Sequence record: PQ863256.1
Direction: 5' to 3' (one strand)
Origin: Escherichia phage Ptacy1479
Length of the DNA stretch: 64,000 nucleotides
The notes beneath the pieces were generated by a model, which searched no databases, was not told the DNA's origin, and was given only the letters and a program-made list of their open reading frames with translations. A program made the translations under genes and the position numbers. Within the stretch, counting starts at the first letter, position 1. Each line of letters starts with the position of its first letter. Shown here piece by piece: positions 8,567 through 59,634 of the stretch.

Positions 8567-9535
8567 ATGGGACTTTTCGGAGGCGGGGGTAGTAAAACTA
8601 CTTCCCAAATGATTCGCCCTGAATACATTCAACAGTATATTGACCAGCTTAACAAGCAGATTGGTAATACCAGTTCAGGGGATTATGTTTATCGAGATAA
8701 TGTAGGGTTTAATAACAACCAGACAGAGGCACTTAACAACTTAGCACAATCTGGTGCTCTAGGAACTCTCTCACAGCAGTACATGGATGCAGCAGGTCAA
8801 GGGTTAGGGTATCTAGATAATGCTTATAAAGGCTATCAGAGCCTCTCTGGACAAGGTGGGATTACTGGAGAACAGATTGGTGCTCTCGCTGGTCAACTGT
8901 ATGATGATGACGCTGTGCAAGCAGCTATAACAGCTAATAACGAGCAGGTTCAACAGAACTTGGCACGTAATGCTCTTCCTCAGTTAGCTCAACAGTTTGC
9001 TGGTCAACAAGGATCAGGTGCTCGTATGGCTAAGTCTTTTGCCCAAGGTGATGCTCTGAATCAGATGCAAGGGCAAGCAACAGATATTACCAACAGTGCC
9101 TATAACTCGGCTATTAGCCAAGCTGAAAGCATCCTCTCTGGTAATAGACAGAATCAGGCAGCTGCTCTCTCAGGTCTTTCTAATATTGGTTCTAACCTTT
9201 CTAACCTAGGTCAGCAGGGTGCTAATTTGTCTCAACAGCAAATGATGAATCAATGGAATGCAGGGTTGCAGCAACAACAGCAACAACAGAATGAATATGA
9301 TAATGCCTACCAGAATGCTCAGAACGCAGCTAATTGGGGATGGCAGGATATCAACAACCAACTCGGTGCAGCAGGCGTACTTAACGGTGCTCTCGGACAA
9401 ACCACAACTACTAAAACATCTGGTGGCAAAGGTGGTTTCCTTGGTGGAGCTATGAGTGGTGCAGCAGCTGGCTCTTCCTTTGGGCCTTGGGGCGCATTAG
9501 CTGGGGGTGTAATCGGTGGGTTGGCTAGTACTTAA
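8567..9535 (+). CDS. Gln/Asn/Gly-rich internal virion or ejection protein (paralogue of 7502..8554)
   Basis: 322 aa, similar composition and N-terminal MxLFG motif as preceding gene; RBS AAAGGAG. Confidence 0.4.
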   Translation: MGLFGGGGSKTTSQMIRPEYIQQYIDQLNKQIGNTSSGDYVYRDNVGFNNNQTEALNNLAQSGALGTLSQQYMDAAGQGLGYLDNAYKGYQSLSGQGGITGEQIGALAGQLYDDDAVQAAITANNEQVQQNLARNALPQLAQQFAGQQGSGARMAKSFAQGDALNQMQGQATDITNSAYNSAISQAESILSGNRQNQAAALSGLSNIGSNLSNLGQQGANLSQQQMMNQWNAGLQQQQQQQNEYDNAYQNAQNAANWGWQDINNQLGAAGVLNGALGQTTTTKTSGGKGGFLGGAMSGAAAGSSFGPWGALAGGVIGGLAST

Positions 9536-9548
9536 TTAGGAGATAAAT

Positions 9549-11204
9549 ATGCAACAGACAACTTACGCTCAGGTCAGAAGTCGTGACCCGAGAAATACTT
9601 TCTATGGTGTTAATCCGGGAGCGGCTTCGGCCTCTCCTTATATGGCTAGACCAACTCAGACAGCAGATATTTCTATGTACCAACGTCCTGCTGTACCTTC
9701 ATCTCTTGCGGGTCTTGTCTCTCAGGCAGAAGAAGATCAGAATGCTATGATTAATCCTGGATTCCAGCAACGTCTTATGGAACAGCAGAATCAAGGAACC
9801 CCTACCAGTCTTCAGGGTATTGACATTGGAGCACCAGCCCCTGTAGTGGCTAATCCTAACCTATCCACTGATCAAGGTTTACAAGATGCAGGGCTTATGC
9901 CTAGTGACCCTCTTCCGGTAACACCTCCCCCTAAACCACTAGAAGCTGGTCCTATGGAGTTTACTCCCTCTCAGGTGGAACAGGCACAAGGTGTGATTAA
10001 CACTCTTGCTCAAGGACAAGACACTGGTGATGGGATGGCTGCTGCTACTCGTGCTAAAGATCAAGAACGTGTTAACAATGATATCTTACAGGTTGCGAAA
10101 GCTAAAGACCCCTCAGAAGCTTGGAACAAACTACAGAAAGAACCATTCTACCAAAACTCTAGTTTCTATACAGGTTTGATGGGTGTAGGTCTTTCAATCA
10201 TGTCAGGTAAGTCTCCTATCGAAGCTTTCCAGATTGGTCAGGGAATGGCTAATCAGGATGAGACTAAGAAACAACTAGAAGCTAACCGTGATGCTCTGAT
10301 AGAACAAGGTTTCTCTCAAGACTCAATTGCAGCTGCTATTGCTAATGGAGACCCGTCCCTGCTGAAGATGAAGGCTGTAGACCCTGCTCAGAAAGAAGCG
10401 TTGTATGCTGCTCGTGAAGAACGACAGAATGCTGAATGGGATAGACGTCAGCAGATTCAAGAACAGACTATGCGTGAGCGTGCTGATGAAACTCGTCGTG
10501 CCGCTGAAGAAAGAGCCAACATGAACTTCGAACGTCAGAAAGAACTTATTGGTTATCGTGATCAAGTTAAGGCTGAACGTGCTGAACAAGCTGCTCAGAG
10601 TTTTAACTTTAACCCGAAAGAAGTTCGTCTTGCTCAGAACACAGCTGAAGGTACAGTTGCTAAGCAGTGGGCAGAGAAAGGTGGTCTGTTTAACCAGTCC
10701 AACAAAGACTTGGATTTGGCTGACAAGGCTGTTAAGGATAAAGATTACCAGACAGCTCGTTCTGCTTACATGCAGGCTATCATGAACTCCGCAAGGGCTG
10801 AAATCGGTGCTACTCGTTCTCTTACCGAAGAAGACTTGGGGCACTTTGCAGAAGACCCATCAATCTTTGTTCGTGTTGGCAACAAGTTTGCACTGAAATC
10901 TGGGTGGCGTCCTACTGATTCAGCTCTTGCTTATGCTCGCAAGCAAGCTAACGTTGGTCACACCTCTGCAATGAAAGGCGTTGCTGATGCTAAGAGAGCT
11001 ACTATCGAAGCGTACATTGGTTCAGGTATGGATAAGAAGAGAGCTACTGCATTGGTTAACCGTGCAATTCCTTCTGGCGGTTTCTATGACCCTCTCGGTG
11101 TTTTCTCTGATGAAGCAGAAGAGTATGTTGGTGGTGCAGCAACCAACCCTAAACTGAACGGTGCTTTATCGGCTGTTGAAGACACTAGCTGGTTCACGCA
11201 ATAA
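9549..11204 (+). CDS. virion or ejection protein (unknown function)
   Basis: 551 aa ORF in structural block, charged coiled-coil-like C-terminal half. Confidence 0.4.
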   Translation: MQQTTYAQVRSRDPRNTFYGVNPGAASASPYMARPTQTADISMYQRPAVPSSLAGLVSQAEEDQNAMINPGFQQRLMEQQNQGTPTSLQGIDIGAPAPVVANPNLSTDQGLQDAGLMPSDPLPVTPPPKPLEAGPMEFTPSQVEQAQGVINTLAQGQDTGDGMAAATRAKDQERVNNDILQVAKAKDPSEAWNKLQKEPFYQNSSFYTGLMGVGLSIMSGKSPIEAFQIGQGMANQDETKKQLEANRDALIEQGFSQDSIAAAIANGDPSLLKMKAVDPAQKEALYAAREERQNAEWDRRQQIQEQTMRERADETRRAAEERANMNFERQKELIGYRDQVKAERAEQAAQSFNFNPKEVRLAQNTAEGTVAKQWAEKGGLFNQSNKDLDLADKAVKDKDYQTARSAYMQAIMNSARAEIGATRSLTEEDLGHFAEDPSIFVRVGNKFALKSGWRPTDSALAYARKQANVGHTSAMKGVADAKRATIEAYIGSGMDKKRATALVNRAIPSGGFYDPLGVFSDEAEEYVGGAATNPKLNGALSAVEDTSWFTQ

Positions 11205-11224
11205 GACCTAAGTCCTGCCTTCTA

Positions 11225-11233
11225 TAATGTATA
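11225..11233 (+). promoter_or_regulatory. TAATGTATA promoter-like motif upstream of large virion gene
   Basis: Motif TAATGTATATAGG lies about 40 nt upstream of ATG 11272; same core recurs upstream of four other genes. Confidence 0.4.
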
Positions 11234-11271
11234 TAGGGGGTAGGACATTTTTATTTATAAAAGGAGACGTT

Positions 11272-14200
11272 ATGGCTAACATTAAACCGTGGGAAGAAGC
11301 TTCCAAAGCTCCTGCGTATCTGAATGCCTCTCCGGAGCAACAAGCTCAAATGAGAGAACAATATAAGGCAGCAGGTGGCTCTATTCCTGAGGAACAACCA
11401 GTAGCACAACCACAACAAGAAGAACGTGGTGCTATAGGTGAGTTTGCTCAAGGTGTGTCAAATGCTCTTCAATCTGGTGGTGCAAATATTGCAGCTAGTG
11501 CTGCTAAAGGTATTGGTGGTTTAGTTGAGATTGGTGAGAATCTAGCTGGAACACAAACTAGTTATGGTAAGCGTATCCAAGAGAACTCTCAGAACCTTCT
11601 GAAAGAGCGTATGGATAAGATTGAGGATGGGGTTGGTAAAACTGTTGGTCAGTATGCTGGCGTTGCTGGTGATATTGGTATGACTGTTGCTAACCCATTG
11701 GCTGCTGCTGCTATCATCGCAGGTCGTGAGACAGGCCGTGCATACGCAGACCAAACCCCTGAAGAGGGAGAAGATAAGTCTATTCTAGATGCGGCCTTAG
11801 TGGGTGGTGCTAACTATGCGGCTCAGAGAATCCTTCCGGGTGCTGTTGGTACGGCTGAGTCCACACTTGGACGTATTGGTCAGAACGTTGCTAGTAACGC
11901 AGTGGCTGGTGCTAAAGGTGGCGCTCTTGTCGGTGCTGCTGAAGTTCAGAACAAGTATGGCGATGATAATGATCTAGCTAAGACATTGGAAGGTGTTATC
12001 GAAGAAGGTGCTATGGGTGCTGCATTCGGTGGTGCAGTTGGTGGGGTTCATGGTTTGATTAGCCGTCCGGATTCTGCTGTCTTCAAGAATACTCCAGAGT
12101 ATGCGAAGACTGATATTGCTGCTGATGATGAACTAATTCGCAGTGCTAAGAATATTGATGAATTGAAAGAAGCCTATTCTAAAGCTGAAACTGCTAACGC
12201 TGCTTCTGCTCTGAATCTTCTGGATGAGAATGGATTCCGTATTACAGATGCTGTTGCTGTAGATTCTCCTGCTGCTCAGCGTATTCTTAATACTGACCAA
12301 GCTCGTGCTGAGAAGGCTGCTTCCGTTCAGAAAGAACATTCCAACATTCCGGGCCTTAATCCTTTAGCTTCTCCTGCTAAGACTCGTGGTAAAGCCTTCG
12401 CTGATAACGAGCACAACCAGAAGCAGGCTGTTGCTATGAAGGATGCAATGGCTGATTACACCAAAGACAACACTAAAGCTCTTACGGATGTTCTAGATAA
12501 CCTAGACCGTGAATTAACATCTCTCCGAGCTTCTGGTGATTTTACTGGTAGTCCGATTGATATTAAGAATCGTACACAAGCCGACCGTGACTTCATTGAT
12601 GCTTACAAGACTTTCTACAACGAAGCAAACAGATTCAAAGCTCGTGAAGGTGAAGACTTTAACAACTTTGTAGAGAAAGCTGCTGAACTACAGAAGATGG
12701 CTGATAATGTCTCTCCAGAGATGAAGAAAGCTATCAGTGGGTTGAAGAAACTGAAAGGTATGCCTGAAGGTTTTAATCCTATCCAAGATGCTTACACTCT
12801 GAACAATACAGCTAAGTTCATGAGCAACCAAGATCGTGGTTGGACTTCCCTGACTGATGATGGATTCCGTGAGGCTTCTTCACCTAGTCTGGTAATGAAT
12901 ACTCTTGGTGCTGCTAAGTATGCTCTGAATCGCTTCTCTTCTCAGCGTGCTCGCTCTCAACGTGTTAAGCAACAAGAGTCTAACAGTGAAGCTATCCGCT
13001 CTCTTGCTCGTGGTGATTTGGAAGTTGCTCGTGCTAAATCTACTGCCGAGGAAGCTCGTGCTAGGATGGAAGAAGAACCAGTTGTTGATGACATTAAATT
13101 TAAGACGCAAAATGACGTAGAAACCGAACCGGTTCGGGAGCCTTCTTCTAGTACTGTGACGGAAGAAAATCTTCCTTCTTCTGCTCCTCAAGAAACTCCT
13201 CTTACAGCTCGTGATTTAGTTGCTCAAAGACGTGCTATCCGTCAGGCTGAACAGCGTCGCGCTGAAGAAGAGGCAGCTGCTGCTCAAGAAGCTCCGGTCG
13301 AACAAGCTCCACAGGCTGAACCTCTCCCTGCTCGTAACCCTCTAGAGGAGCGTCGTGCAATGGAACAGCAACGTGCTCAAGAAGAGGCCGCACAGGCTCC
13401 AGAACCAGCCGTAGAGGAACCAACAGTCAAAGCTGAGCCATTACCTGCTCGTGCTCCTAAAGCTCCTAAGGAAGCTGTACAGGACGTTAAACCGGCAAGT
13501 GGTGTAGAACGTTTAGCTGCTATGTCTAGTGCTGCTCGTCAGGCTACCAAAGATCGTGCAGAACGTTTTGCCCGTTCTCTGTACTCTAAGGCTGCTAAGG
13601 CTAAAGCTACTGCTGAAAACTTCTTGGCTTATAAGGGTGATCCTAAGGAATTGATGCGTCGTATTCGTCAGGAAGACAATGCTATCAATACTGAACGTCA
13701 TGAAGAAATGGCTCGTAACCAGCTGGCTTCTCAGCAAGGTATTGCTACTGCTAAGAACAACACTGTACGAACTAATTTTGCTGAATGGGTTAAAGAACGT
13801 GGTCTGCCAGAAGACATTGCTACTAAGGCATTACGTGCTGAAGAGAAAGGTTTAGGTGGGAACGTAACTAACTTGGATAGTCTGAAACGCCGTGCTGAAA
13901 GGTTGTATCAGAAGCAGCGTGAGGATGAATTTGATAGACTGTACCAACAGGCTCTAGAAGAGAACAAAGCTTTCGATAACAAGAATGCTCCTAAACTGAT
14001 TGACCAGAAGAAAGAGCTTCAGTCCGAGATTGACGCTTTGATTGATTCAGAACCTTTACGTCCTGCTCAGAAAGATGCTATGCGTAAGCTGATGAATGAT
14101 TTTGTAGATGGGAAGTTTAAATCTTCAGAGAAGGCTGGTAGGGAAGAGGCTTTGGAAGTTGGTCAGATGAAGGATATTTGGGATGGGTTTATTAATACCT

Positions 14201-15693
14201 ACAACAGAGAAGTGAATGCCTTCAACAAAGCTAACAAGAACTCTCAGTACGAAGCTGCTGCTAAGCACTTACAGGCTCGTGAAGAACGTCTTGCTACCCT
14301 CAGGAAAAAGGCTCAGGCTCGTTCAGATGCTAAGGCTGCTGTTGAGAATGAACGTAAAACTCTAGAGGCTATTGCAGCTCAGAAGAGTGAGATTGAGAAG
14401 ATGATGGAAGGTTTACCTAAACCTGTTCGTGAGGCTCAGGAATCTCGTACATTGAAACAGTTGGCTGCTCACCACGATAAGAATTCTCCAGTTCCTCCAG
14501 AGAAATTCCGTAGTTATATTGAACGTATCCACAACGCCGAGTCAGATTACCTTGATCGTCAGCGTCGTTTAACTGATGCAGAGGAAGATGCTCGTCAGGC
14601 TAAGTGGAATAAGATGTATGAGCAAGCGGAAGAGATGAACCGTAAGTTTGATGTGGACAAGAGAGTTAAGCGCAGTGAAGAGCTTAAAGCGGCCCAAGAG
14701 CGTGAGAATGACCTTATGGCAGTACAACGTCAACGTGATGACATTCATCGCCGCCTGATGCGTACTATGGAAGATAAGGGCATATCTAGAGAGGATGCTG
14801 AAGCATTTGCTGGTTCCTATATGGACAACCGTTATGCACTTCTTGAGAAGCCTATGACTCCTACTGAACATCAGAATGCTCGCTCTCGTATCGAAGCTGA
14901 TGTTGAGAAGTTTGCTAAGAAGTACGAATCAATGACTCCTATCGAGAAAGAGATTGTTAAGGTTACTGGAGATACTGAAGGTAAGCTTGATAACTTGGAT
15001 GCGGATACTAGGAAGGCTATTGAGGAGGCTCAGAAGGTTGACTCTGATATTAAGAAACTGCAAGAGGAAGAGATGGAGATGGAGAAGATTCGTTCTGCTC
15101 TGCCTGACGATGAAAGATCTCAAGCAAATTCTGATATCTTGGAAAGCATTAAACAACAGGAAGAGGTCTTTGCTGATAAAGTAGAGAAAGCTTTCTTGAG
15201 TGGGAAAAGCTTGGATGAATTGGTTAGTGTGGCTGAAGTTTTAGACAGGGTTCATGGTGCAGATAAGGCTGGTAACAACCGTCGCTTTGTACGTGCATTG
15301 CAGACTGCTGCTGAAAACAAGAAGAAGTATGGTGATAATCCGGTAGCTTGGTTTAGTGCTGATGATTACTCTGCCATTGCTAAACTTGGTGCTTCTTCCG
15401 CAGGTGGTAACAAATCCAGAGCACTGGAGAAGATCTTTGGTTCTACAGCTGAACAGGCTAAGAGTAAGTTGCTTGGTAGGGATGATGTAGCGAAGATGAG
15501 ACGTGTGATTGAAGAGAACCCTGATATTAAGATTCCTTCTTACAAGACAACGAATCGTACTGAGTACTTGCAGTTCTTGGAGAAGTTTAATGACGAAGGG
15601 AAGCCGAAGATTAAACGTGGCTCATTGTCAGAGAAGCTTGAACGCAGTAAGCGTCAATCGAGACTCCGTGTAAGAGTTCGACCTAAGGAGTGA
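11272..15693 (+). CDS. very large charged coiled-coil virion or ejection protein
   Basis: Start at ATG 11272 with RBS AAAGGAG; about 1470 aa, E/K/R/A-rich with internal AEPLPAR(N/A)P repeats; function unassigned. Confidence 0.45.
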   Translation: MANIKPWEEASKAPAYLNASPEQQAQMREQYKAAGGSIPEEQPVAQPQQEERGAIGEFAQGVSNALQSGGANIAASAAKGIGGLVEIGENLAGTQTSYGKRIQENSQNLLKERMDKIEDGVGKTVGQYAGVAGDIGMTVANPLAAAAIIAGRETGRAYADQTPEEGEDKSILDAALVGGANYAAQRILPGAVGTAESTLGRIGQNVASNAVAGAKGGALVGAAEVQNKYGDDNDLAKTLEGVIEEGAMGAAFGGAVGGVHGLISRPDSAVFKNTPEYAKTDIAADDELIRSAKNIDELKEAYSKAETANAASALNLLDENGFRITDAVAVDSPAAQRILNTDQARAEKAASVQKEHSNIPGLNPLASPAKTRGKAFADNEHNQKQAVAMKDAMADYTKDNTKALTDVLDNLDRELTSLRASGDFTGSPIDIKNRTQADRDFIDAYKTFYNEANRFKAREGEDFNNFVEKAAELQKMADNVSPEMKKAISGLKKLKGMPEGFNPIQDAYTLNNTAKFMSNQDRGWTSLTDDGFREASSPSLVMNTLGAAKYALNRFSSQRARSQRVKQQESNSEAIRSLARGDLEVARAKSTAEEARARMEEEPVVDDIKFKTQNDVETEPVREPSSSTVTEENLPSSAPQETPLTARDLVAQRRAIRQAEQRRAEEEAAAAQEAPVEQAPQAEPLPARNPLEERRAMEQQRAQEEAAQAPEPAVEEPTVKAEPLPARAPKAPKEAVQDVKPASGVERLAAMSSAARQATKDRAERFARSLYSKAAKAKATAENFLAYKGDPKELMRRIRQEDNAINTERHEEMARNQLASQQGIATAKNNTVRTNFAEWVKERGLPEDIATKALRAEEKGLGGNVTNLDSLKRRAERLYQKQREDEFDRLYQQALEENKAFDNKNAPKLIDQKKELQSEIDALIDSEPLRPAQKDAMRKLMNDFVDGKFKSSEKAGREEALEVGQMKDIWDGFINTYNREVNAFNKANKNSQYEAAAKHLQAREERLATLRKKAQARSDAKAAVENERKTLEAIAAQKSEIEKMMEGLPKPVREAQESRTLKQLAAHHDKNSPVPPEKFRSYIERIHNAESDYLDRQRRLTDAEEDARQAKWNKMYEQAEEMNRKFDVDKRVKRSEELKAAQERENDLMAVQRQRDDIHRRLMRTMEDKGISREDAEAFAGSYMDNRYALLEKPMTPTEHQNARSRIEADVEKFAKKYESMTPIEKEIVKVTGDTEGKLDNLDADTRKAIEEAQKVDSDIKKLQEEEMEMEKIRSALPDDERSQANSDILESIKQQEEVFADKVEKAFLSGKSLDELVSVAEVLDRVHGADKAGNNRRFVRALQTAAENKKKYGDNPVAWFSADDYSAIAKLGASSAGGNKSRALEKIFGSTAEQAKSKLLGRDDVAKMRRVIEENPDIKIPSYKTTNRTEYLQFLEKFNDEGKPKIKRGSLSEKLERSKRQSRLRVRVRPKE

Positions 15694-15699
15694 TAAAAG

Positions 15700-15742
15700 A
15701 AAAGCCCTCAAGGAGAAATCCAAGAGGGCTTTATTTGTTTCT
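15700..15742. terminator. bidirectional rho-independent terminator at convergence of + and - gene blocks
   Basis: Stem GCCCTC...GAGGGC followed by TTTATTTGTTTC on + strand and a T-rich run on - strand, directly after stop of 11272..15693. Confidence 0.5.
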
Positions 15743-16057
15743 AAGTTTTAAAAACCATCAAATTCGTCATACATCCCAATTCTCTTCAGAGGTCTGGATG
15801 TTCATCTTCAAAGCACCCTGAGATGCCTCCGTAGAACCAATCTGATTTACTTCCAAGAATAACAACCTCTTCATTCATATAACCCCCTTAGATTGTGTTT
15901 ATAAAATTAATAAGCTTCTCTTCACTTTCATCAAAAGCTTTTCCAGCTGCTTCCATCTCCCAAGTATCGGCATTGTCAATAAAGCTCTGAGCTTCTAATA
16001 GATCGTGGATTAAGTCGAAGAGTTTATTTTTATCTGATTGTGTGATCATGTCAGTTC

Positions 16058-16282
16058 CTAGATTAAATCGTAATACTGAATAATGTCAGAGAGTTTGAAC
16101 TCTCGAACCTCATCTTTCTCTACATCTATCGCTGTCATAATCCAACAAGGTTTGCCACCATTATGAAAACGGGAGCTAGCAACGGAGGTTCGGAGTGGAA
16201 TAACGGACCGGTCAGCAACCTCGCCTCTCCAATTGCGATAGCGAAAGCGAAGCACTTGTTGCGTAGATTTTTGATCATCACT
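16058..16282 (-). CDS. hypothetical protein
   Basis: ORF starting at internal Met (MSDDQK) abutting upstream HNH gene stop. Confidence 0.3.
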   Translation of the reverse strand, partial: SDDQKSTQQVLRFRYRNWRGEVADRSVIPLRTSVASSRFHNGGKPCWIMTAIDVEKDEVREFKLSDIIQYYDLI

Positions 16283-16679
16283 CATTTCCTTTTTTGAATT
16301 GTTTTCTTGCATCATTTTCCATCTTAGTTTTAATCTTATGACAAGGGTCTTTACACAGAACTTGAAACCCATCTTTCTCACACAGAGCACGAGAGATTAT
16401 TTCATCCCAAGTGGCTTCATGGTCAAGAGGAACTATAGGCTCTATGTGATCAATAGCCATATCCTTTACAGGGTGGTCAGAACCACACATGGCACACTTA
16501 AAGTGCATTGCCAGTCTACCTGTCTTTGGATTAATCTTCTGCTCTGTCTTGGCGTCTGCTAGTGCATCGAACATGGGCTTCCACTTTCTAGTCAGAGAAC
16601 GAATCCCTGACTTGATGAAAGAGTTGTAACGAGCTTCAGTCCACATTCCACTACAGCGAGTCTTCTCAGACTTCGCCAT
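16278..16679 (-). CDS. HNH endonuclease
   Basis: Cys/His pattern CAMCGSDHPVKDMAIDHIEPIV...LCKDPCHKIK consistent with HNH nuclease motif. Confidence 0.55.
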   Translation of the reverse strand: MAKSEKTRCSGMWTEARYNSFIKSGIRSLTRKWKPMFDALADAKTEQKINPKTGRLAMHFKCAMCGSDHPVKDMAIDHIEPIVPLDHEATWDEIISRALCEKDGFQVLCKDPCHKIKTKMENDARKQFKKGNE

Positions 16680-16858
16680 AATCAGCTTCTTCCCAAACTC
16701 GTTTGTTTACACGATGGCTCACTTTGCCCTCACGAGGAATACGACCAGTTCGCTGATCAAACAGTTGATGTTTAATCTTTTGGTCTTTACGAGATTCACG
16801 ATTGGAGGAGTTTTCATCATATGAACGATAATCAAATTTACCCATTATAATATCCTTA

Positions 16859-17677
16859 TTACCAAGATTTATCTAACCATGTCCAGTCGAACAGGTCTTC
16901 CGGAGTCTGACCAACAAAGAGTAGCCGAGCATTCTCAAGCATCTTCTCTTCATCTTCAGTATCGAACTTCTTATAATATTCCATTCGTACTATATGATAC
17001 ATGGTCCACTTATCTGTAACACCAGCCAATAGTTTAGCTGCTGCTTTCTTCCCTATTCCTTGACGTCGAAGCTGGAGCTTACCACCCCACATAACTTCTT
17101 TACGTTCTCCACACCCGGGGATATTATCTGTACCATCTCCAATAAGCATCTGATAGAAGAAATTTTGCCATGAAACTAAATCAGATACGTAGTGAGGAGG
17201 AACCTCTTTCTGTCTTTCTCCACAAGCCCAACGATAATGCCATCCGGGAGTTATCAACAAATCTTTGTCTCTAGTACAGATGATAGTGTTCTTATCTCTA
17301 CGTTGCCTTTCAGCTAGTGCATCATCAGCCTCTCTCCCAAATACATCTATGTATTCATATTTACCTTTAATGTAATCACCAACGTTTTGCCAGTGAAAAG
17401 GCCTTTCTCCGGGAGGTCTATTTGCTTTGTAGTCTTGCTGCTTAGCAACATCGAAACGGAAGTTACCACCTTCGCTGAAGTAGAACACAATCTTACTACA
17501 ACCTGATCGAGCTATGATTGTATCAATCTTATACTGAAGTCGTTCAATCATGAAATTGTAATCAACTGGAACACGTCCTGTGTCAAGAAAGGGATGCTCC
17601 TGAGTAAGAGCACCCACTTCATATCGAAGAACGTCAGCATCCACTATAGCTACTTCAGGGAGCTTAACGTCTTCCAT
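16859..17677 (-). CDS. 5'-3' exonuclease (FEN-type / T7 gene 6-like)
   Basis: Motifs IVDADVLRYEVG and IGDGTDNIPG typical of 5'-3' exonuclease PIN and H3TH regions. Confidence 0.7.
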   Translation of the reverse strand: MEDVKLPEVAIVDADVLRYEVGALTQEHPFLDTGRVPVDYNFMIERLQYKIDTIIARSGCSKIVFYFSEGGNFRFDVAKQQDYKANRPPGERPFHWQNVGDYIKGKYEYIDVFGREADDALAERQRRDKNTIICTRDKDLLITPGWHYRWACGERQKEVPPHYVSDLVSWQNFFYQMLIGDGTDNIPGCGERKEVMWGGKLQLRRQGIGKKAAAKLLAGVTDKWTMYHIVRMEYYKKFDTEDEEKMLENARLLFVGQTPEDLFDWTWLDKSW

Positions 17678-17678
17678 A

Positions 17679-18205
17679 TTATTCTCCTAGCAGCTTACGT
17701 ATTCCATTGCGGAAATTATCGTACTCTTCAGGGTATTCAAACCCACACTCAAGAAGAGCATAGTGAACAACCTTCAACAAATCCTGAACCTTATTCTTAT
17801 CTTTGTGTCGATAAGCATATTTGATCATGTTGGTTTGTTGGAAGTTCAACTGTGGGTTTGCATGATAAAACTCAACAGGTTGAATGATTTTAGATTCCGG
17901 GTTATAGTGTGCCCCACCAACCATAGTATCTAAAGCTGGACTTCTTTTGCTGGTTTGTTCGGTTGTAGGCTTAAAACTAACCACAGGAACAGATGAGTAG
18001 ATTGGGTATTCTTCGCCTACTGGTGGTTTTACTATCAACCTTTTCATTGTATACCGAATCTCTGTATCAGAGGAACCGGATGAAATCTCTTCAATAGATT
18101 TACGATAACTGTCAATAATTGCACGTAACATAGAGATTGTTTTAGTCTTCTCTTTTAATTTCTCTGTTAGTACAATAACTTCTGCTTTTTTGGATTCAAA
18201 CTCGG

Positions 18206-18215
<10 letters not shown>
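17679..18215 (-). CDS. hypothetical protein
   Basis: 178 aa ORF, translationally coupled neighbours. Confidence 0.4.
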
Positions 18216-19499
<1,284 letters not shown>

Positions 19500-19744
19500 A
19501 ATGCATCTCTTTATAAACAGTTTCCGTGTTCTTCTTCCAGTTAGATAAACCGGTAAGAACTCTCTGAGCAACTTCATCAGCTGCCCTACTTCTTTCAATC
19601 TCTAACTCTTGTTGATGCTTTTCTTTATCCAGATTGTTACTGTCTGTTCTGTACTCATTAAACTTCATGCCACCAAAGAATACAAGAGCTGAAAAGATAA
19701 CAAATCCTAGATTATCACTTAAAGTGCTTTGCATATTGTCTCCA

Positions 19745-19770
19745 ACGAAAAAAGCCACCCGGAGGTGGCT
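19745..19770 (-). terminator. rho-independent terminator
   Basis: - strand stem AGCCACC-TCCG-GGTGGCT followed by TTTTTTCG, directly downstream of SSB-like gene. Confidence 0.45.
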
Positions 19771-19791
19771 AAGCTATAACAAGGAGAGTTA

Positions 19792-20538
19792 TTAGAATGG
19801 GCTATCGTTGTCGTCTTCATAAGTAGAAGCAGGCTCTTTATCAATCGTAGGGATTGAAGGGGTAGCTTCTTTCTGCTCTGTTTCAGAAGCACGAGTAATT
19901 TCACGACCAGCCAGAGGCATGTTCTTAGCGTCATTAGCTTGAGTAAGCAGGTTGCGCTGGAACGGGAACATCAGTTGATAGGATGCTACGTTCTCATCGG
20001 TTTCAGCATACGGTTCGAAGAATACCAGAGGACTACGAGCTTCACCAACTGCTGCACGATATTTGGTTGGGATTGGAGAAATGGTCTTGATGGAGTTTTT
20101 AACTTCACCAGCTTTGTTAGTATAAGAGTTAACCAGAATGTTAACAGGCTGACCTAACAGAACATCCTTGAACCAAGACAGATCACCTTTCAGTGCTTGA
20201 ATGCTTGGGTCAATCATCTTGCAAAGATCAAGAATACCAGAGTTCTTAGCTCGTGGGTTTACATCATAGCTCTTGAACTGGCAAGCCGGACGTGGTTCTA
20301 ATGCCTTACCATCGGAATCTTTACCAGTAGCATCAACACCAATCAGCTCGAAAGCCAAATCCATACGGAAAGCCGGATTCTTAGGGGTTACTGCTTTGGT
20401 CTTCGGGTCAATCCAAGGGTCACGATTGTGAACACCCAAACCTACTACACGAACGATACGTGCTTCGTATTCACCATCAGGGATTACATCGTAGTTGGAT
20501 TTACGGGAAGCAGTTGCGATAGTTGGAATCATAGACAT
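19792..20538 (-). CDS. single-stranded DNA-binding protein (T7 gp2.5-like, tentative)
   Basis: 248 aa with acidic C-terminal tail ending EDDNDSPF, analogous to the acidic Phe-terminated SSB tail; located in replication block. Confidence 0.45.
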   Translation of the reverse strand: MSMIPTIATASRKSNYDVIPDGEYEARIVRVVGLGVHNRDPWIDPKTKAVTPKNPAFRMDLAFELIGVDATGKDSDGKALEPRPACQFKSYDVNPRAKNSGILDLCKMIDPSIQALKGDLSWFKDVLLGQPVNILVNSYTNKAGEVKNSIKTISPIPTKYRAAVGEARSPLVFFEPYAETDENVASYQLMFPFQRNLLTQANDAKNMPLAGREITRASETEQKEATPSIPTIDKEPASTYEDDNDSPF

Positions 20539-20597
20539 ATTGTAATTTCCTTATTTAGTTTGAAAGATTGTTGCTCTCTTTGAGCGGTTATGTATAG

Positions 20598-20606
20598 TAT
20601 ACATTA
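20598..20606 (-). promoter_or_regulatory. TAATGTATA promoter-like motif (palindromic with + strand TTATGTATA at 20588..20596)
   Basis: - strand TAATGTATACTATACAT about 55 nt upstream of SSB-like gene start. Confidence 0.35.
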
Positions 20607-20669
20607 CGCTTATACCGATAAGAGTACTATATAATATAAGTATCTTTGGTAGTAGATATAACACACTAG

Positions 20670-20678
20670 TAATGTATA
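20670..20678 (+). promoter_or_regulatory. TAATGTATA promoter-like motif on + strand inside a - strand gene region
   Basis: + strand AGTAATGTATATATTGTATAG in a 415 bp intergenic region; orientation is antisense to flanking genes. Confidence 0.3.
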
Positions 20679-21084
20679 TATTGTATAGCTGATAAAGTTA
20701 TTGCAGGCTTGTATATTGGGCAATTCACAGAATCCCTTGCAAGTACCGAAGGGCAGGAGCCACCTGCGAGATAAAAATAGAGAATTAAGGAATCCTTGAT
20801 TTAGGTTGTAGGGACTCCTAGGGACTTTGATTCTCTAATTAAAAGAATAATAATTACTTATTACCCAAATAATTAACTAACTTACTTAAACCAAATTCAA
20901 GAATAATAGATAAAAAGATTATTCCTAATAAAGCCAAGAAGTAAACAATATAAGTTACCATTCAAGTAAACCTTTAAAATTAGATTTTTCTACTATCCTC
21001 TGATAACGAAGATTAGAATCAGCTTGTTTCTTTAACATCTCATTATATTGATCTCTGATAGAGTCTTTATGAATTACAGGTTCT

Positions 21085-21588
21085 TTAAATAATGAGATCT
21101 TGTTCTTTTCTTCTTTCATCGAAAACCTTCCTAATCTCTTGCAGAGAAACAGCTTTATAATTAATTTGCTCCATTGATGTACAGAAATATCTCCAATCAT
21201 CAATTACATGATTATGTGTATGAGCATAAATATTAAACTTCCCTCTCATCTCATCAGAGTGAATAGGAATGTGAGTTATCCAAAACTCTTTATATTTATA
21301 ATCACCAGAGATTCTACGGAAGACTTTCATCATATCAGGGAGAAGTTCTAATCTGTCATGATTTCCTAAGACCAGATGTTTCTCTCCTTTTACTTCAGCG
21401 ATGATATCAAGGGCATACTTTTCAAACACCCAATCACCAGTAAAGAAAATTTTATCACGCTTAGTTACATGATCAAATGCAGCTAGAATTGCTTTGTCAT
21501 GTTCTTCGATGGTTTTAAATTGCTTACGAAAACTACAGATGTTGCGATGGCCTAAGTGACCGTCTCCTGCAAAATAAACTTCAGCCAT
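21085..21588 (-). CDS. metallophosphoesterase (calcineurin-like Ser/Thr phosphatase fold)
   Basis: Motifs GDGHLGH, GNHD and HTHNH match phosphoesterase metal-binding signatures. Confidence 0.65.
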   Translation of the reverse strand: MAEVYFAGDGHLGHRNICSFRKQFKTIEEHDKAILAAFDHVTKRDKIFFTGDWVFEKYALDIIAEVKGEKHLVLGNHDRLELLPDMMKVFRRISGDYKYKEFWITHIPIHSDEMRGKFNIYAHTHNHVIDDWRYFCTSMEQINYKAVSLQEIRKVFDERRKEQDLII

Positions 21589-21597
21589 AAAGACCTC

Positions 21598-21813
21598 TTA
21601 GATAGTACACCCATCGCAAGTTAAATCACCTAGAAGGGATAGAGAAAGTAATCTGGATTGCTCATCACTGTATAATTGATCAATCTCTTCTTTAAGTTTT
21701 GCCAACTCTGTGAAATTGATAAGTTGACCATGTTCAAGACAGTCTGTTTTTAGTATAAATAAAACTTCAGCGTCTGTTGAATCTTCACTTGAATATTTAT
21801 CAATGTATTCCAT
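21598..21813 (-). CDS. hypothetical protein
   Basis: 71 aa ORF co-oriented in operon. Confidence 0.3.
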   Translation of the reverse strand: MEYIDKYSSEDSTDAEVLFILKTDCLEHGQLINFTELAKLKEEIDQLYSDEQSRLLSLSLLGDLTCDGCTI

Positions 21814-22305
21814 TTTTACTCCTATTAATTATGACCAAGATTTAGCTTTTACTTCGACGTATGTTTTAACTTCACCTTTCAAGACTTCCTGAGAAGTCTT
21901 TGCACTTTCCTCAGAGTGATGTACAACGGTGATCTCTTTCTTTCCAATCTTATAAGTGTGAATCCAAATCATACTTCTTCCTTATATTCCCAATTTCTTT
22001 CATAATACCCAGAGTTGTAGTTTAGGGCGCACTTCTCGGCCTCTTCTATGTCGTCAGTGTTTAGGATATTTACCCATCCTCCAACTTCATCAAAACCTTC
22101 TTCTACTTCGTTAAACCATACGCTATACTTTTTCATCGAGAAGTTCTTCCCCAATCTTTTACATAGCATCGCCCGTTAACCCACTTTGTCTCTGACTTAA
22201 ACTCTTGAGACAATCTCACTTCACAGTCTTCTCTACTGGCATCTCCTCCGATATCAATCAGATATAGGAATAGGGCTATACCTAAAGACCAAAGAATTAT
22301 CTTCT

Positions 22306-22698
22306 TCATCGAATCACCAAAGGCTCTTCAGAGTACACAGGAGCGGCTATTTCTACAGGAGGTGCTGCCCTAAGGTCATTAAGTCTTACGCCCTTCAGCA
22401 TACCGTCTAGGTGGTCCTTTTTGGGGATTCCAACAGGGAAGTCGTCAATCCAGATATCTACAAAGAAACCTAGCTGCCGACATACCTCATCCTTCTGGAC
22501 ACCATTGCAAAAGATGATAGGAATTTGCAAACACTCTGCATCAATCTTAATATCGTGATTATCATACCCATTAGGTTCTGCAAAGCGATAAGTTACAAAA
22601 CGTACATCATAGCCTTTTTCTTGCATTAAAGCCACCACAGAGCGCCACAGCTTTTTATCTGAGGTGTAAGTGTCATCGTAATCTAAACCAATATTCAT
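22306..22698 (-). CDS. HAD-like phosphatase (tentative)
   Basis: N-terminal MNIGLDYDDT resembles HAD motif I (DxDxT); WIDDF resembles motif IV. Confidence 0.3.
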   Translation of the reverse strand: MNIGLDYDDTYTSDKKLWRSVVALMQEKGYDVRFVTYRFAEPNGYDNHDIKIDAECLQIPIIFCNGVQKDEVCRQLGFFVDIWIDDFPVGIPKKDHLDGMLKGVRLNDLRAAPPVEIAAPVYSEEPLVIR

Positions 22699-22832
22699 TC
22701 CCCTAACTCCTCATGTTCGTGACCACAAATAGGGCATTTGTATAAATGGACAGGTGTTTCGAAGATCTCTGACCATTGAGTATCTATCCTTTTAGATACC
22801 GAGCCACATTTATCACATTCAGATTCTAACAT
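22695..22832 (-). CDS. small zinc-ribbon protein
   Basis: 45 aa ORF MLESECDKCG...CPICGHEH with two CxxC pairs; stop overlaps next start (ATGA). Confidence 0.3.
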   Translation of the reverse strand: MLESECDKCGSVSKRIDTQWSEIFETPVHLYKCPICGHEHEELGE

Positions 22833-22847
22833 TTCTAAATCCTTTAG

Positions 22848-22880
22848 ACAAGAAAAGCCGCCCGAAGGCAGCTTCTTATT
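22848..22880 (-). terminator. rho-independent terminator-like hairpin
   Basis: Stem GCTGCC-TTCG-GGCGGC with flanking T-runs on both strands, just after stop of 22878..23058. Confidence 0.4.
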
Positions 22881-23058
22881 TAACTGTTCACTTTAGCTTC
22901 AAGTGTTTCATTTTCAATACTCAAGTCAATCACTACACCAGTAAGCTCAACGACTGCTTGGCGAAGTGCATCTTTACCCATAGAGTGTACTTGAGATAAG
23001 AAGAAAGCTTTACCTTCTTCCGTGGATAGGGTTTCTTTCAGTTCAGTTGCAGTCATTC
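22878..23058 (-). CDS. small hypothetical protein
   Basis: 59 aa ORF MTATELKETL... with GAGG RBS, below the ORF-track length cut-off. Confidence 0.25.
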
Positions 23059-23235
23059 TTTTCCTCTCTCTCTTTCCATAATTCAGCCAGTTCTAAATAA
23101 TATTGTGCTTCATCAGCACGTCCTTGTTCACTACAGATGGCGCTTTGACGATAACACCAATCCGATGGCATCTCTTCCACTTCAATCTCCTTGTTACGAA
23201 CTAATCAATAAGAATAGTTCATTCGTCTTGTTTGT

Positions 23236-23472
23236 TCACTCTGCCAATGCAGGTATCTCTAATCTCTTAATTGTGAATGCTTTGTCTGGAAACTTTCGAA
23301 CTAGCTCCGCTGCTTTGCTAATCGCTAAGTTCTCTGTTTCAAAGATACAGAATTGACCATTCAGAGCGGTAATAGTGGAGCCACCACTGAAGATGGCCCA
23401 AGATTTATAATAACCACGAACACTCATAACCCACCTTAGTGCGTATGCATCCAGTTGAGTCCAATCTGACAA
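23236..23472 (-). CDS. hypothetical protein
   Basis: 78 aa ORF, co-oriented. Confidence 0.3.
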   Translation of the reverse strand: MSDWTQLDAYALRWVMSVRGYYKSWAIFSGGSTITALNGQFCIFETENLAISKAAELVRKFPDKAFTIKRLEIPALAE

Positions 23473-25280
23473 TCAGAGGCCAGAGGACATTCCATGTTCA
23501 AGTACTCACCCGCTTTCTTAACACAAAGCTCAGTGTGTTCTTTGAGTTTCTGTACATCATTACGATTCACTGAGAATTGGCCCTCATCATGCATATCAAT
23601 TACCTTAGCACAACGAACCCCATCCCTCTCAATCCACTTGTTTAGGAACATCATAGCATATTTCATAACAACAGCACCAGCACATTGCAGTAGAGTGTTA
23701 AGTGCTTTATGAACCATAACCTTACCAGTGGCATCTCGTCTCATTGTAATCTTACGACCATCAACACCAATCAAGTATCCTTGAGCAGCTTTCTCTGTCA
23801 TACGATCAATGAGGATTGCAATACATGGGTTCTCTGCCAAGAAACGTGCTCGCATCACTGAACCTTCTTCAGCCCCACCACCTACAATTGAACCAAGCTT
23901 AGCGTCGCCAGCACCGTAGTTGAATGCATAGATAAATGTTTTAGCGTTGTCACGAGTAGGAAGACCAGCAAGTTTCTGGTTATGGGAGTGGATATCACCT
24001 TCAAGGAGAATATCACGATACATAATAGCAGAAGCTAAACCACGTTCTGCCAGAGCTTTCTTAGCCGGATTGTTCTCTTCAATTGCCTCAGCAAGCATAT
24101 CTCTACACTCTTTAATGAGGTAGTGAGCGAGCATACGAAGTTCAAGTCCAGAACCATCATACCCTAAGAATACTTCTTTACCAGCGGGTATGTAATATTT
24201 GTAAGCACCTACAGGTTTGTCTTTCTTCCTCGGCTTACCTTTCTCATAAATTACGTTAGTACCTTTTCGTATATAACAACCATCAGGAACAACGTTAGTA
24301 ATAACGAAAGGACGAGAATGATCACTGTCTGAGTTATAGTCAGACTCAAACAAACTGCGACACTCGTGACCAAACAAACCACGGGAGGGAATATTAACCA
24401 CGATACGATGTTTGAATCGAAAAGTTGGCGTAGCGCAGCTGTTAGCTTCTGCCGAAAGTTTACCATCTTCGCGTTCCTTTGCTATGAGTCCACTGATAAG
24501 ACCTAGCCTGTGAGCCGCTACAACGCGTCTCTTAAGCAAACTTCCGACACTCCCTAGATCACCCCCTAGCCCCTCTTCAAGAGTCTCCTCGAGGTTTGTA
24601 GGAGCTGTAGGCCACTTATTTGATGTGGCTAGTGCTTTCTTAATCTCATCAAACGTTACAGGATTACGGCGATTAGGGTTCAATCCCAAACCAAATACGT
24701 AAGCCTTCATATAGTTCTTAGTTTTAAACCTGAAATGCTTTTCTAAGAACTTCTTAATATCAGCGTCAACCATCTCGGCTGTCTGCTTTTGCTTAGCATT
24801 GCCTCTCATCCAAGCAGTATACCATGCTTGGTATGTTCCATACTTTCGCATATCTTTCTTAATTTCGAAAGTATTCCAAGGTTTCTTAGATACGTTAAAC
24901 TCTGGAGGAAGAAAGCCCTCATCCATAAGAGCCTCTTTAACTCGTGCATCTTTCGATGGGTCAAAGTCTACGTATTCGACACAGGTGAATGCTCCACCAA
25001 TATCTTCTCTCTTCAGCCCAACCCTATCACAATAGGCTTGAGGCCACTTCTGTAAAGCTCCAGACTTCTTAAACGGCTTCATGTAAGTAGAGCCATCTAA
25101 TCTCATCTTAGGTAAGAGAGGAATCAACTCTCTGTCAATATTAACAATAATCTCTTTAAGGAGGTGAACATACCACCGAGCATTTCTTCGGTTGAAACTC
25201 ACTCCGTGCTTTGCTTGCTTAGAGATTATATCAGCGACAGTCATCTCTGTCAAAAATGGAAGAGCGTCCGGGTTGCTCAC
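23436..25280 (-). CDS. DNA polymerase family A, polymerase domain only (split polymerase, part II)
   Basis: Motif A GYDGSGLELRMLAHY, motif B RDNAKTFIYAFNYGAG, motif C IDMHDEG; no exonuclease motifs in this ORF. Confidence 0.85.
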   Translation of the reverse strand: MSNPDALPFLTEMTVADIISKQAKHGVSFNRRNARWYVHLLKEIIVNIDRELIPLLPKMRLDGSTYMKPFKKSGALQKWPQAYCDRVGLKREDIGGAFTCVEYVDFDPSKDARVKEALMDEGFLPPEFNVSKKPWNTFEIKKDMRKYGTYQAWYTAWMRGNAKQKQTAEMVDADIKKFLEKHFRFKTKNYMKAYVFGLGLNPNRRNPVTFDEIKKALATSNKWPTAPTNLEETLEEGLGGDLGSVGSLLKRRVVAAHRLGLISGLIAKEREDGKLSAEANSCATPTFRFKHRIVVNIPSRGLFGHECRSLFESDYNSDSDHSRPFVITNVVPDGCYIRKGTNVIYEKGKPRKKDKPVGAYKYYIPAGKEVFLGYDGSGLELRMLAHYLIKECRDMLAEAIEENNPAKKALAERGLASAIMYRDILLEGDIHSHNQKLAGLPTRDNAKTFIYAFNYGAGDAKLGSIVGGGAEEGSVMRARFLAENPCIAILIDRMTEKAAQGYLIGVDGRKITMRRDATGKVMVHKALNTLLQCAGAVVMKYAMMFLNKWIERDGVRCAKVIDMHDEGQFSVNRNDVQKLKEHTELCVKKAGEYLNMECPLASDCQIGLNWMHTH

Positions 25281-25296
25281 TTTATACTCCTTTAAA

Positions 25297-25719
25297 TTAT
25301 TGGTAAAGTAAATCTGTAAATGCTTGGTTATCTTCTACTACATTCAGCATGGTTGCTTCATCACTATAAGCCCTAACTGTCCCGTTGACAACTGTCCAAG
25401 GAGGGGGCGGAGGAGGTGTATGTGCAGCTCTGGCTTCACGAGGTTGTTCTCGTACTAGATGATCCACAACCCTCTGACCAGCAAGTTCCTCTCTTTCTCT
25501 AATAGATCTTTGGATGTAAGCCAGCTTCATACCCCAAGCTTCTTCAAACTCTTGAGGGTGCTTATCACTGATAACCACATACTGTCGCTCTGGGCGTCCT
25601 GCCCTAATATCTGACAATAATTCATGGAACAAGTCAAGCTCATGTTCAGTGAGACTTTCTTCGATATCATCCCACTTGAGAACTAGGAAACGGTTTTGAT
25701 ATCTAGTTGGTAATGGCAT
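25297..25719 (-). CDS. hypothetical protein (Pro-rich segment PPPPPPW)
   Basis: 140 aa ORF directly upstream of polymerase gene. Confidence 0.35.
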   Translation of the reverse strand: MPLPTRYQNRFLVLKWDDIEESLTEHELDLFHELLSDIRAGRPERQYVVISDKHPQEFEEAWGMKLAYIQRSIREREELAGQRVVDHLVREQPREARAAHTPPPPPPWTVVNGTVRAYSDEATMLNVVEDNQAFTDLLYQ

Positions 25720-25722
25720 AAC

Positions 25723-26007
25723 TCAACCTTTTGGGAATGGCATTAAAGATTCCATAGCAGCTTTAATTTCGCTATTGATCCGTGAATCTCGATAAGAGAT
25801 AAACTTACCTTTGCTGTCACGTAGCATCACATGGGTTCTGGCTGTTTTGTGAGGGAGTAATGTGATACTGGTCGGGATAGCATCAACCCCCACAGAGTAT
25901 TTGTCAATAGTCTTGCTTTCAGCCAACAGATAAGACCAAGTACGCGGTTTCTGCTCCGGGCGGTTGGGGTATGTATCTCGAATCTGTACCATAGCTAACA
26001 TATTCAT
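25723..26007 (-). CDS. small protein, tandem paralogue pair member
   Basis: Shares KTARTxVxLRxxxGKFISY...PFPxG with 26009..26263. Confidence 0.35.
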   Translation of the reverse strand: MNMLAMVQIRDTYPNRPEQKPRTWSYLLAESKTIDKYSVGVDAIPTSITLLPHKTARTHVMLRDSKGKFISYRDSRINSEIKAAMESLMPFPKG

Positions 26008-26008
26008 A

Positions 26009-26263
26009 TTAAACTCCTTCAGGGAATGGGATGAGATTTTCTACTGCAACACGGAAAGATTTTTCTACGTTCTTATTCTTATAAGAGATGAATTTTCCAT
26101 CAGCTCCGCGAAGGAGTACATTAGTGCGAGCTGTTTTTGGGTTTTGTTGAATCATAGAACGAATGATGTGCTCTGAACCTCTGTGGTTATTGGTGAATTT
26201 CCAACTGGTGGTTTTACCGGTACGGGTTACATCAACGATATTTACGATTTTTACAATAGACAT
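26009..26263 (-). CDS. small protein, tandem paralogue pair member
   Basis: Shares conserved block with 25723..26007. Confidence 0.35.
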   Translation of the reverse strand: MSIVKIVNIVDVTRTGKTTSWKFTNNHRGSEHIIRSMIQQNPKTARTNVLLRGADGKFISYKNKNVEKSFRVAVENLIPFPEGV

Positions 26264-26332
26264 ATTTATTACCTAAGAAGTTTATTTTGGTTTATATAAA
26301 AGAAAAGGCCACCTGATTAGGCAGCCTTTGTT

Positions 26333-26626
26333 CTAGAGACGAAGCCAAGTTTGATAGTCAGCTTCAGTGTAATGGTTGTTCCGAGAGTTGTTTTTCATTT
26401 CCTTGAGAGTAGCTCTCAGGTCGATGTTATGCTCTCTCCTTGTTCTATTCGGGTCTGTATCTTCTAATAGATGGGAGTGATCACTACAAGAGTAGTGCTT
26501 ATAGTGGTCCCTGTACCCCCTATTTGTAGAATACTTGGTCATTAAAGTTGCAACTCTTTTTACACCCTCTGCTTTACAGAATTTACAGTAAGTGTGAATT
26601 GTACATCTTTTTGTTTCTGCTGACAC
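26333..26626 (-). CDS. hypothetical Cys/His-rich protein
   Basis: 97 aa ORF with CKFCK and HYKHYSCSDHSH. Confidence 0.3.
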   Translation of the reverse strand: MSAETKRCTIHTYCKFCKAEGVKRVATLMTKYSTNRGYRDHYKHYSCSDHSHLLEDTDPNRTRREHNIDLRATLKEMKNNSRNNHYTEADYQTWLRL

Positions 26627-26636
26627 TATAACCTCT

Positions 26637-26951
26637 TTATGAGCTTAAAGCTCCTTTGCGTGCTCCAGCTGCTTTTCCAGCTCGATCACCACTTTTGCCG
26701 CCGTTTGAACGGTTTGAGCTGACTGATTCAACACGTAAGTTGCTTGACGCATTAGAACCTCCAGACTTGACAGCTCGTTTGTGTCCAACATCTTTACCTC
26801 TGACAGCAGCTTTTCCATCGCGCTTTTCAACGATGCGACGTGCACGGTGGCGCTGAGCATCTCCGCTCTTGCTCCCAACGCCTGTCTCACCACGGGCAAT
26901 TGCGGTACGTCTTTCTTGTGCATAATCTCTCTTTCCTACATGATCTGCCAT
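26637..26951 (-). CDS. basic Gly/Ser/Lys/Arg-rich protein
   Basis: Strong RBS AAGGAG 7 nt upstream of ATG 26951 and promoter-like motif upstream; overlapping alternative-frame ORF 26645..26923 judged spurious. Confidence 0.4.
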   Translation of the reverse strand: MADHVGKRDYAQERRTAIARGETGVGSKSGDAQRHRARRIVEKRDGKAAVRGKDVGHKRAVKSGGSNASSNLRVESVSSNRSNGGKSGDRAGKAAGARKGALSS

Positions 26952-26987
26952 TTAAAACTCCTTAATATATCAGTGTACACTAAGGAG

Positions 26988-26996
26988 TATACATTA
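26988..26996 (-). promoter_or_regulatory. TAATGTATA promoter-like motif
   Basis: - strand ATAATGTATACTCC about 40 nt upstream of ATG 26951. Confidence 0.35.
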
Positions 26997-59623: not shown

Positions 59624-59634
59624 TTAAAGAGCGG
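59624..59634 (+). repeat. TTAAAGAGCGG repeat copy 1
   Basis: Exact 11-mer shared with the copies at 59859 and 60171. Confidence 0.5.

Follow-up and report, generated by a model that had tools for sequence, protein, structure and literature searches.

The nine-nucleotide word TAATGTATA, which recurs in the genome of Escherichia phage Ptacy1479 (PQ863256.1), is with a probability that we put at about 0.93 the -10-like element of promoters that depend on the phage sigma factor gp36 and on gp79, with four sites restarting middle and late transcription. The stretch of DNA analysed, referred to here as the window, comprises 64,000 nucleotides of this genome. The finding recognises a published promoter class anew in one more Kuravirus isolate, and as such it is already known; the promoter biochemistry is derived from the literature, and the present analysis shows the sites, their non-random placement, their conservation and orthology, and which proteins are the sigma factor and its co-activator.

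A 4-kb stretch of the window is ~96% identical to many genomes of Kuravirus, the phiEco32-like podophages of E. coli, and, judged by this similarity, the window derives from such a phage. It is collinear with phiEco32 from position 14826 of that genome to its right end. At 63383-63625 the window passes the right end of phiEco32, crosses the terminal repeat, which is there only once, and enters the left end, so that the assembly is circularly permuted and its terminal repeat collapsed. The sigma factor gene of the window encodes an orthologue of gp36 in which the DNA-contacting residues E79, H80, Y83, R84, W90, S91, S94, N95, Y186 and R187 are all kept; a comparison with the PDB returned the solved gp36 structure (9m7y chain F, E = 1e-145), and the match to Pfam Sigma70_r2 was weak. 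An orthologue of gp79, which is both an inhibitor of the sigma-70 holoenzyme and a co-activator of the gp36 holoenzyme (PMC12276001), is also encoded.

In phiEco32 the mapped promoters of the gp36 holoenzyme, P6, P13, P26, P40, P58 and P68, share a single consensus element, tAATGTAtA (PMC8948821, PMC4331800). They precede genes 6, 13, 26, 40, 58 and 68, the first three being late promoters and the last three middle promoters (PMC8948821, PMC4331800, PMC4281155), and the P68 element is the variant aAATGTATA (PMC8948821 Table S3). In phiEco32, by primer extension, transcription starts 6-8 bp 3' of the element (PMC8948821); a search for RNA-seq or other start-site mapping in Kuravirus phages found none. 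A 2025 study assigned AATGTA to positions -14 to -9 (Xu et al. 2025, NAR, PMC12276001). In that work both P26 and P68 were transcribed in vitro by the gp36 holoenzyme and stimulated by gp79, 4-fold in the case of P26, and the P68 open complex was solved by cryo-EM, with gp36 reading the element as a -10 (PMC12276001). The N-terminal domain of gp36 reads A-14, A-13, T-12 and G-11, and at P68 its sigma-4-like C-terminal domain contacts -37G through R187 and the T opposite -34A through Y186; mutations at these contacts in the -35 region abolish transcription (PMC12276001).

We propose that the same mechanism would operate in Ptacy1479. E. coli RNA polymerase core carrying gp36, and helped by gp79, would use the TAATGTATA promoters, with the N-terminal domain of gp36 reading the four bases from -14 to -11, DNA opening from -11, the C-terminal domain touching the -35 region at -37 and -34, and transcription beginning ~7 nt past the 9-mer. 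After the shut-off of sigma-70 transcription by gp79, the four sites would restart transcription before the homologues of gp26, gp40, gp58 and gp68.

The five sites named in the initial annotation are all present in the window, four as exact copies and one with a single mismatch (see the table). That annotation had also proposed a genome-wide search for the motif, and this returned four exact matches in the 64-kb window against a shuffle expectation of 0.66, with 0 of 100 dinucleotide-preserving shuffles reaching four. Nor does the motif occur equally often in coding regions: under the published annotation of phiEco32 the exact 9-mers of that genome are intergenic in five cases out of five, for an intergenic fraction of 0.089 (binomial P = 5.7e-6). 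The one-mismatch class as a whole is without enrichment in the window (18 observed, 20.6 expected), as is the core AATGTA (42 observed, 45.8 expected). The signal is confined to the full 9-mer and looser versions carry none; with no enrichment among one-mismatch variants, sequence does not suffice for calling weaker sites. Across the relatives compared, namely phiEco32, SU7 (genus Suseptimavirus), MN05, TH42, NC-B, PE006, XT32 and contigs from IMG/VR, which contributed only five Kuravirus contigs, the 9-mer is unchanged at all five sites in every genome and the flanks diverge.

Several features suggested by mechanical annotation were set aside. A naive map of open reading frames wrongly puts three of the sites within ORFs, and the published phiEco32 annotation was used in place of the map. 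The small ORFs over 20551-20723 were judged spurious. Since the motif includes an ATG, mechanical ORF calling begins the 1488-aa gp26 ORF inside the promoter, at 11227, and the true start of the gp26 homologue, which has an RBS, is the ATG at 11272. Relatives do not keep as motifs the copies with one mismatch at 20588 (+) and 20679 (+); the former is part of a palindrome at the P40 orthologue and the latter part of the initial transcribed region of the site at 20670 (+), which we call X+. The annotated promoter features of SU7 and 4E8 do not coincide with 9-mers, and were left unused.

Table. Promoter elements, associated structures and genes in the window. Transcription starts are predictions extrapolated from phiEco32; an empty cell means that no strand applies.
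Feature	Position	Strand	Detail
P26 orthologue, late, -10-like element	11225..11233	+	exact TAATGTATA; predicted start ~G11240
P40 orthologue, middle, -10-like element	20598..20606	-	exact TAATGTATA; predicted start ~20591
P58 orthologue, middle, -10-like element	26988..26996	-	exact TAATGTATA; predicted start ~26981
P68 orthologue, middle, -10-like element	32081..32089	-	AAATGTATA, one mismatch; predicted start ~32074
P68 -35 region	32100..32113	-	TTGGTAGTAGATAT; G32111 = -37, A32108 = -34
X+, fifth site	20670..20678	+	exact TAATGTATA; predicted start A20685
X+ -35 region	20646..20659	+	TTGGTAGTAGATAT; G20648 = -37, A20651 = -34
X+ stem-loop	20685..20701	+	ATAGC-N7-GTTAT; begins at predicted +1
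Near-invariant non-coding block, ~90 bp	20748..20838		downstream of X+; 7 variants in 18 genomes
Terminator-like hairpin and T-run	11212..11258	+	15-bp stem 11212-11246; 9-mer at apex
P58 read-through hairpin	26957..26988	-	ACUCCUUA directly after the 9-mer pairs with the SD UAAGGAGU of gene 58
P68 read-through-only structure	32042..32097	-	UAACUCUC in the P68 spacer pairs with GAGAGUUA at the gene 68 SD
gp26 homologue	11272..15693	+	ATG 11272
gp40 homologue	19792..20538	-	ATG 20538
gp58 homologue	26637..26951	-	start 26951
gp68 homologue	31712..32041	-	start 32041
Sigma factor gene, gp36 orthologue	18595..19239	-	214/214 identity to phiEco32 gp36 over 18598..19239
gp79 orthologue gene	38057..38305	-	82/82 identity to phiEco32 gp79 over 38060..38305

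On position and context, the sites at 11225 (+), 20598 (-), 26988 (-) and 32081 (-) are orthologues of P26, P40, P58 and P68, respectively; P6 and P13 lie outside the window. All four are intergenic, each directly upstream of its own gene (the orthologues of 26, 40, 58 and 68), and the start codons that follow them are preceded by good ribosome-binding sites. The context of the P26 orthologue from -45 to +75 is identical to that of phiEco32 P26, and the element is invariant in eight relatives. The P40 orthologue matches phiEco32 36632(-) in synteny and context, its 9-mer being invariant in 18 relatives and its upstream sequence variable, and the P58 orthologue matches phiEco32 42937(-), with the stretch from 9-mer to RBS invariant in nine relatives and no conservation upstream. 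At the P68 orthologue AAATGTATA is identical to the published variant element, having the same A at the first position, and the region from -45 to +75 differs from the phiEco32 template by one spacer base. Phage Ptacy1479 shares with phiEco32 the 9-mer, the P68 variant, the P68 -35 bases, the downstream genes, flanks that are identical or nearly so, and an identical sigma factor and gp79; nothing substantial differs at the four sites, and the window represents another isolate of the same virus group.

Given that these sites are orthologous to mapped gp36 promoters, and that the 9-mer is invariant, the initial annotation was right to propose that the motif is a promoter element of the sigma factor that the phage encodes, a proposal further supported by the identity of gp36 and the published consensus, and the feature is already known; the consensus for phiEco32-like phages that it mentioned also agrees with the published element. 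It had further placed the motif at a fixed 35-55 nt upstream of start codons. Counted from the first base of the motif, this is borne out at the P26, P58 and P68 orthologues (47, 45 and 48 nt, respectively) but not at the P40 orthologue, where the distance is 68 nt, and it has no application to X+, which has no gene downstream on its strand.

The -35 region is also consistent with recognition by gp36. Numbering the sites with AATGTA centred at -11.5 places a G at -37 and an A at -34 in P68, in agreement with PMC12276001. Among the 13 sites checked, A is found at -34 in every case, all five window sites included, which fits the reported gp36 contacts, and a purine is found at -37 in 12; this is an A at the P26, P40 and P58 orthologues, and G-37 and A-34 are both present at the P68 orthologue and X+. 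There are exactly two copies of the 14-mer TTGGTAGTAGATAT in the window, one at P68 and one at X+, and each ends 10 nt before the 9-mer. The late promoters P13 and P26 share a different word, TAAGACCTA, at -38 to -30 (phiEco32 9075-9085 and 25988-25998; window ~11199-11210), and the distinction between TAAGACCTA and TTGGTAGTAGATAT, the -35-region word common to P68 and X+, may separate late from middle promoters.

RNA structure is predicted at the P26, P58 and P68 orthologues. The hairpin at P26 folds with -22.8 kcal/mol (z = -4.56) and is followed by the tail ATTTTTATTT; a stable, G+C-containing stem-loop directly followed by a T-run is the arrangement of an intrinsic (rho-independent) terminator, and this hairpin tops the terminator-like matches listed for 10500-30000. 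On inspection of the alignment its arms differ in SU7-type phages and still pair. The hairpin probably ends gene 25 transcripts, and since the P26 element sits at its apex, the putative gene 25 terminator and the restart promoter P26 overlap, with the predicted P26 start falling in the 3' arm.

The structures predicted for P58 and P68 involve the SD sequences of the downstream genes. Read-through RNA at P58 folds with -14.7 to -17.2 kcal/mol and has the SD paired, and promoter-started RNA folds with -0.6 to -1.2 kcal/mol; at P68 the corresponding values are -19.4 to -21.1 kcal/mol for read-through RNA and -0.5 to -2.3 kcal/mol for promoter-initiated RNA. In relatives the P68 structure shows one compensatory change, from A-U to C-G, and the inner hairpin is re-made. 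The predicted SD-masking structures at P58 and P68 are conserved in relatives and would be available only to read-through transcripts, which suggests that genes 58 and 68 would be translated only from gp36-initiated transcripts. The P40 element makes up one side of the near-perfect palindrome TTATGTATA-g-TATACATTA (20588-20596 with 20598-20606); relatives retain the inverted repeat, TGTATA / TATACA, around a centre of 1 or 3 nt.

Genes 40 and 41 are separated by 315 bp, in which X+ and P40 stand back-to-back, and the direction of X+ is opposed to every neighbouring gene. Inspection of the sequence and its ORFs found no gene downstream on the + strand; the two ORFs there (32 and 21 aa, with TTG starts and no SD) were rejected, and the segment that holds them is replaced in other phages. 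The site is present and exact in phiEco32 as well, at 36704(+), yet it is not among the six gp36 promoters listed for that phage, the original 2012 paper apart. The primary source for phiEco32's gp36-dependent promoters of the middle and late classes is reportedly Pavlova et al. (2012, J Mol Biol 416:389, PMID 22261232), and X+ may have been tested in that work and found silent.

The case for X+ as a promoter comes from its likeness to P68 and from its conservation. TTGGTAGTAGATAT spans -39 to -26 at X+ in the published numbering, with the same N10 spacing as at P68. Among 18 relatives (14 distinct sequences, two genera) TGGTAGTA.AT and positions -15 to -5 are invariant in all 18, and the 10-nt spacer varies in sequence and is constant in length, a pattern that looks like a promoter-type footprint. 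In ES17 and one IMG/VR contig ~190 bp are inserted between P40 and X+, and X+ is kept, only its -35, -10 and downstream parts being conserved. The stem-loop at the predicted +1 is paired in all eight distinct variants (100% of cells), with compensatory changes at two of the five pairs and G-U pairs that work on the + strand only, the minus strand giving no fold (0 kcal/mol). The stem has 5 bp, and P68 carries one like it at the corresponding place.

An alternative is that X+ is an inactive relic, a decoy or an element acting at the level of DNA; it could be a duplicate of the sequence upstream of P68, a palindrome that binds a protein, or a piece of a signal for replication or packaging. The missing downstream gene and the silence of the published lists are in keeping with this, as is the near-invariance of the adjoining block, which a DNA site could also show. 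The putative RNA is unremarkable in fold energy, the predicted transcript being not significantly more stable than shuffled sequence (z = -1.6) and the values for transcript and block on both strands lying between z = -1.1 and -1.6, none of them significant. However, a relic would be expected to decay, and both the -35 and the -10 of X+ are invariant with a spacer of fixed length; moreover, X+ persists as a module despite the insertion that separates it from P40, and the pairing of its stem-loop is maintained by changes that are valid only in + strand RNA. We consider a relic, decoy or DNA-level element unlikely, at something like one chance in four, and X+ is probably an active promoter.

If X+ is active, its product is probably a non-coding RNA, and candidate roles include a stable small RNA, an antisense transcript and a replication primer. 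X+ would then be an inferred seventh promoter of the same P68-like kind, giving a non-coding transcript that starts with a stem-loop. In its fullest form this proposal, to which we give somewhat less than even odds, holds that X+ is an unlisted seventh gp36 promoter, paralogous to P68 from -39 to ~+20, which makes a conserved ~155-nt non-coding RNA or an origin-priming or antisense transcript against the middle-gene cluster. Such an RNA may consist of the +1 stem-loop, a variable middle and a 3' domain that hardly varies and ends close to 20838. GC skew in the window tracks gene orientation and is uninformative on an origin.

The 3' domain of this putative RNA would correspond to the non-coding block beside X+, which was compared among 18 genomes of Kuravirus and Suseptimavirus. 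The block contains a GCAGG-N5-CCTGC hairpin, a long AT-rich hairpin at 20778-20838 and a direct repeat of TAGGGACT (20809 and 20819), and its variation is too small for a covariation test. The segment between the X+ hairpin and the block exists in two unrelated versions among relatives. The block has neither an above-chance match in Rfam nor a homologue in E. coli, and the X+ region as a whole showed no similarity to E. coli genomes; a search of 20540-20960 against Rfam gave one match, at chance level (E = 8.5), and at the gathering threshold Rfam returned only a tRNA-Arg, the one tRNA also found by ARAGORN. On the minus strand the block hairpin is followed by TTTTTAT, and it could be a terminator ahead of P40.

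For the motif as a whole, the sites might be host sigma-70 promoters, or promoters used by both sigma-70 and gp36, with the 9-mer an AT-rich variant of the host -10. The SU10 genome paper reports BPROM predictions of sigma-70 promoters at the positions of middle promoters and proposes dual use (PMC4281155), and a weak sigma-70-like pair, TAGATA-18-TATATT (9/12), overlaps X+. Yet matches of this quality occur at chance frequency in that region (4 against 4.6 expected), and the promoters have been assigned to the gp36 holoenzyme, with gp79 blocking sigma-70 transcription (PMC8948821, PMC12276001). The conserved bases AATGTA, with G at -11, fit the contacts of gp36 (PMC12276001) and not TATAAT, in line with the initial impression that the motif does not resemble a sigma-70 -35/-10 pair. 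We regard host recognition as very improbable.

That the recurrence is due to chance in AT-rich intergenic DNA (the genome has ~42% G+C, and the 20-22 kb region less), or that the motif is a mere part of hairpins, as its position at the apex of the strong hairpin at 11225 and within the palindrome at 20598 might suggest, is a reading to which we attach almost no weight, as it is already contradicted by the shuffles and the intergenic placement in phiEco32, by the retention of the 9-mer in two genera at five loci whose flanks are unrelated, by the other sites not lying in hairpin loops comparable to that at 11225, and by the published biochemistry.

Three further observations concern promoters in the window and its relatives. 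A perfect sigma-70 consensus (TTGACA, 17 nt, TG-n-TATAAT, 12/12) is found at 25253..25225 (-), within the DNA polymerase gene and ~30 nt from its edge; it is kept in phiEco32, MN05, PE006 and XT32 and missing in SU7, TH42 and NC-B, and because it lies within coding sequence it is possibly a coincidence of codons. At 58810-60745 there are ~2 kb without an ORF of at least 50 aa on the coding strand, corresponding to the phiEco32 gap between genes 124 and 125, and this appears to be a spacer with early sigma-70 promoters as described in the SU10 paper (PMC4281155). Finally, in three metagenomic phages (L012, L013 and L014) with a gp40 of 67-70% identity, TAATGGATA or AAATGGATA is present at ~1375-1390, ~110 nt upstream of gene 40, and may represent the form of the promoter that a related sigma factor uses; neither a divergent copy of the motif nor the conserved block was found in these three.

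Phage T4 offers parallels to several of these features. Its late promoters consist of a short -10-type element, TATAAATA, that is read by the small phage sigma factor gp55. At the middle-mode origins ori(uvsY) and ori(34) the transcript from a middle promoter forms an R-loop primer, and X+ resembles these in being a middle-type promoter without a gene beside AT-rich DNA; T4 differs in its sigma factor, in how co-activation works and in sequence, and an origin role for X+ is speculation by analogy. T4 gene e, which encodes lysozyme, is subject to translational masking of read-through transcripts. P58 and P68 are similar in that promoter-adjacent sequence is complementary to the SD and the RBS is predicted to be free only in promoter-started RNA, and differ in that masking is predicted here from folding and limited covariation.

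Among phages with a divergent sigma factor, Salmonella phage 7-11 and Cronobacter phage GAP52 are comparable in that their sigma factor (gp47) directs the host core polymerase and their late promoters occupy equivalent genome positions (PMC8948821). In contrast, they have a bipartite consensus, GTAAtg-N16-aCTA, no gp79 homologue and no middle class, and sites of the TAATGTATA type were not found by the authors in either genome (PMC8948821).

For the annotation of Ptacy1479 the gains are temporal classes for the promoters, the place where gene 26 truly starts, and sites at which engineered phages could take up payloads. The remaining interest lies in X+, a P68-like site that is unlisted, conserved and gene-less and that stands beside a near-invariant block, and in the predicted masking of ribosome-binding sites: if translation of genes 58 and 68 is indeed confined to transcripts from their own gp36 promoters, the sigma switch would be coupled to a switch in translation.
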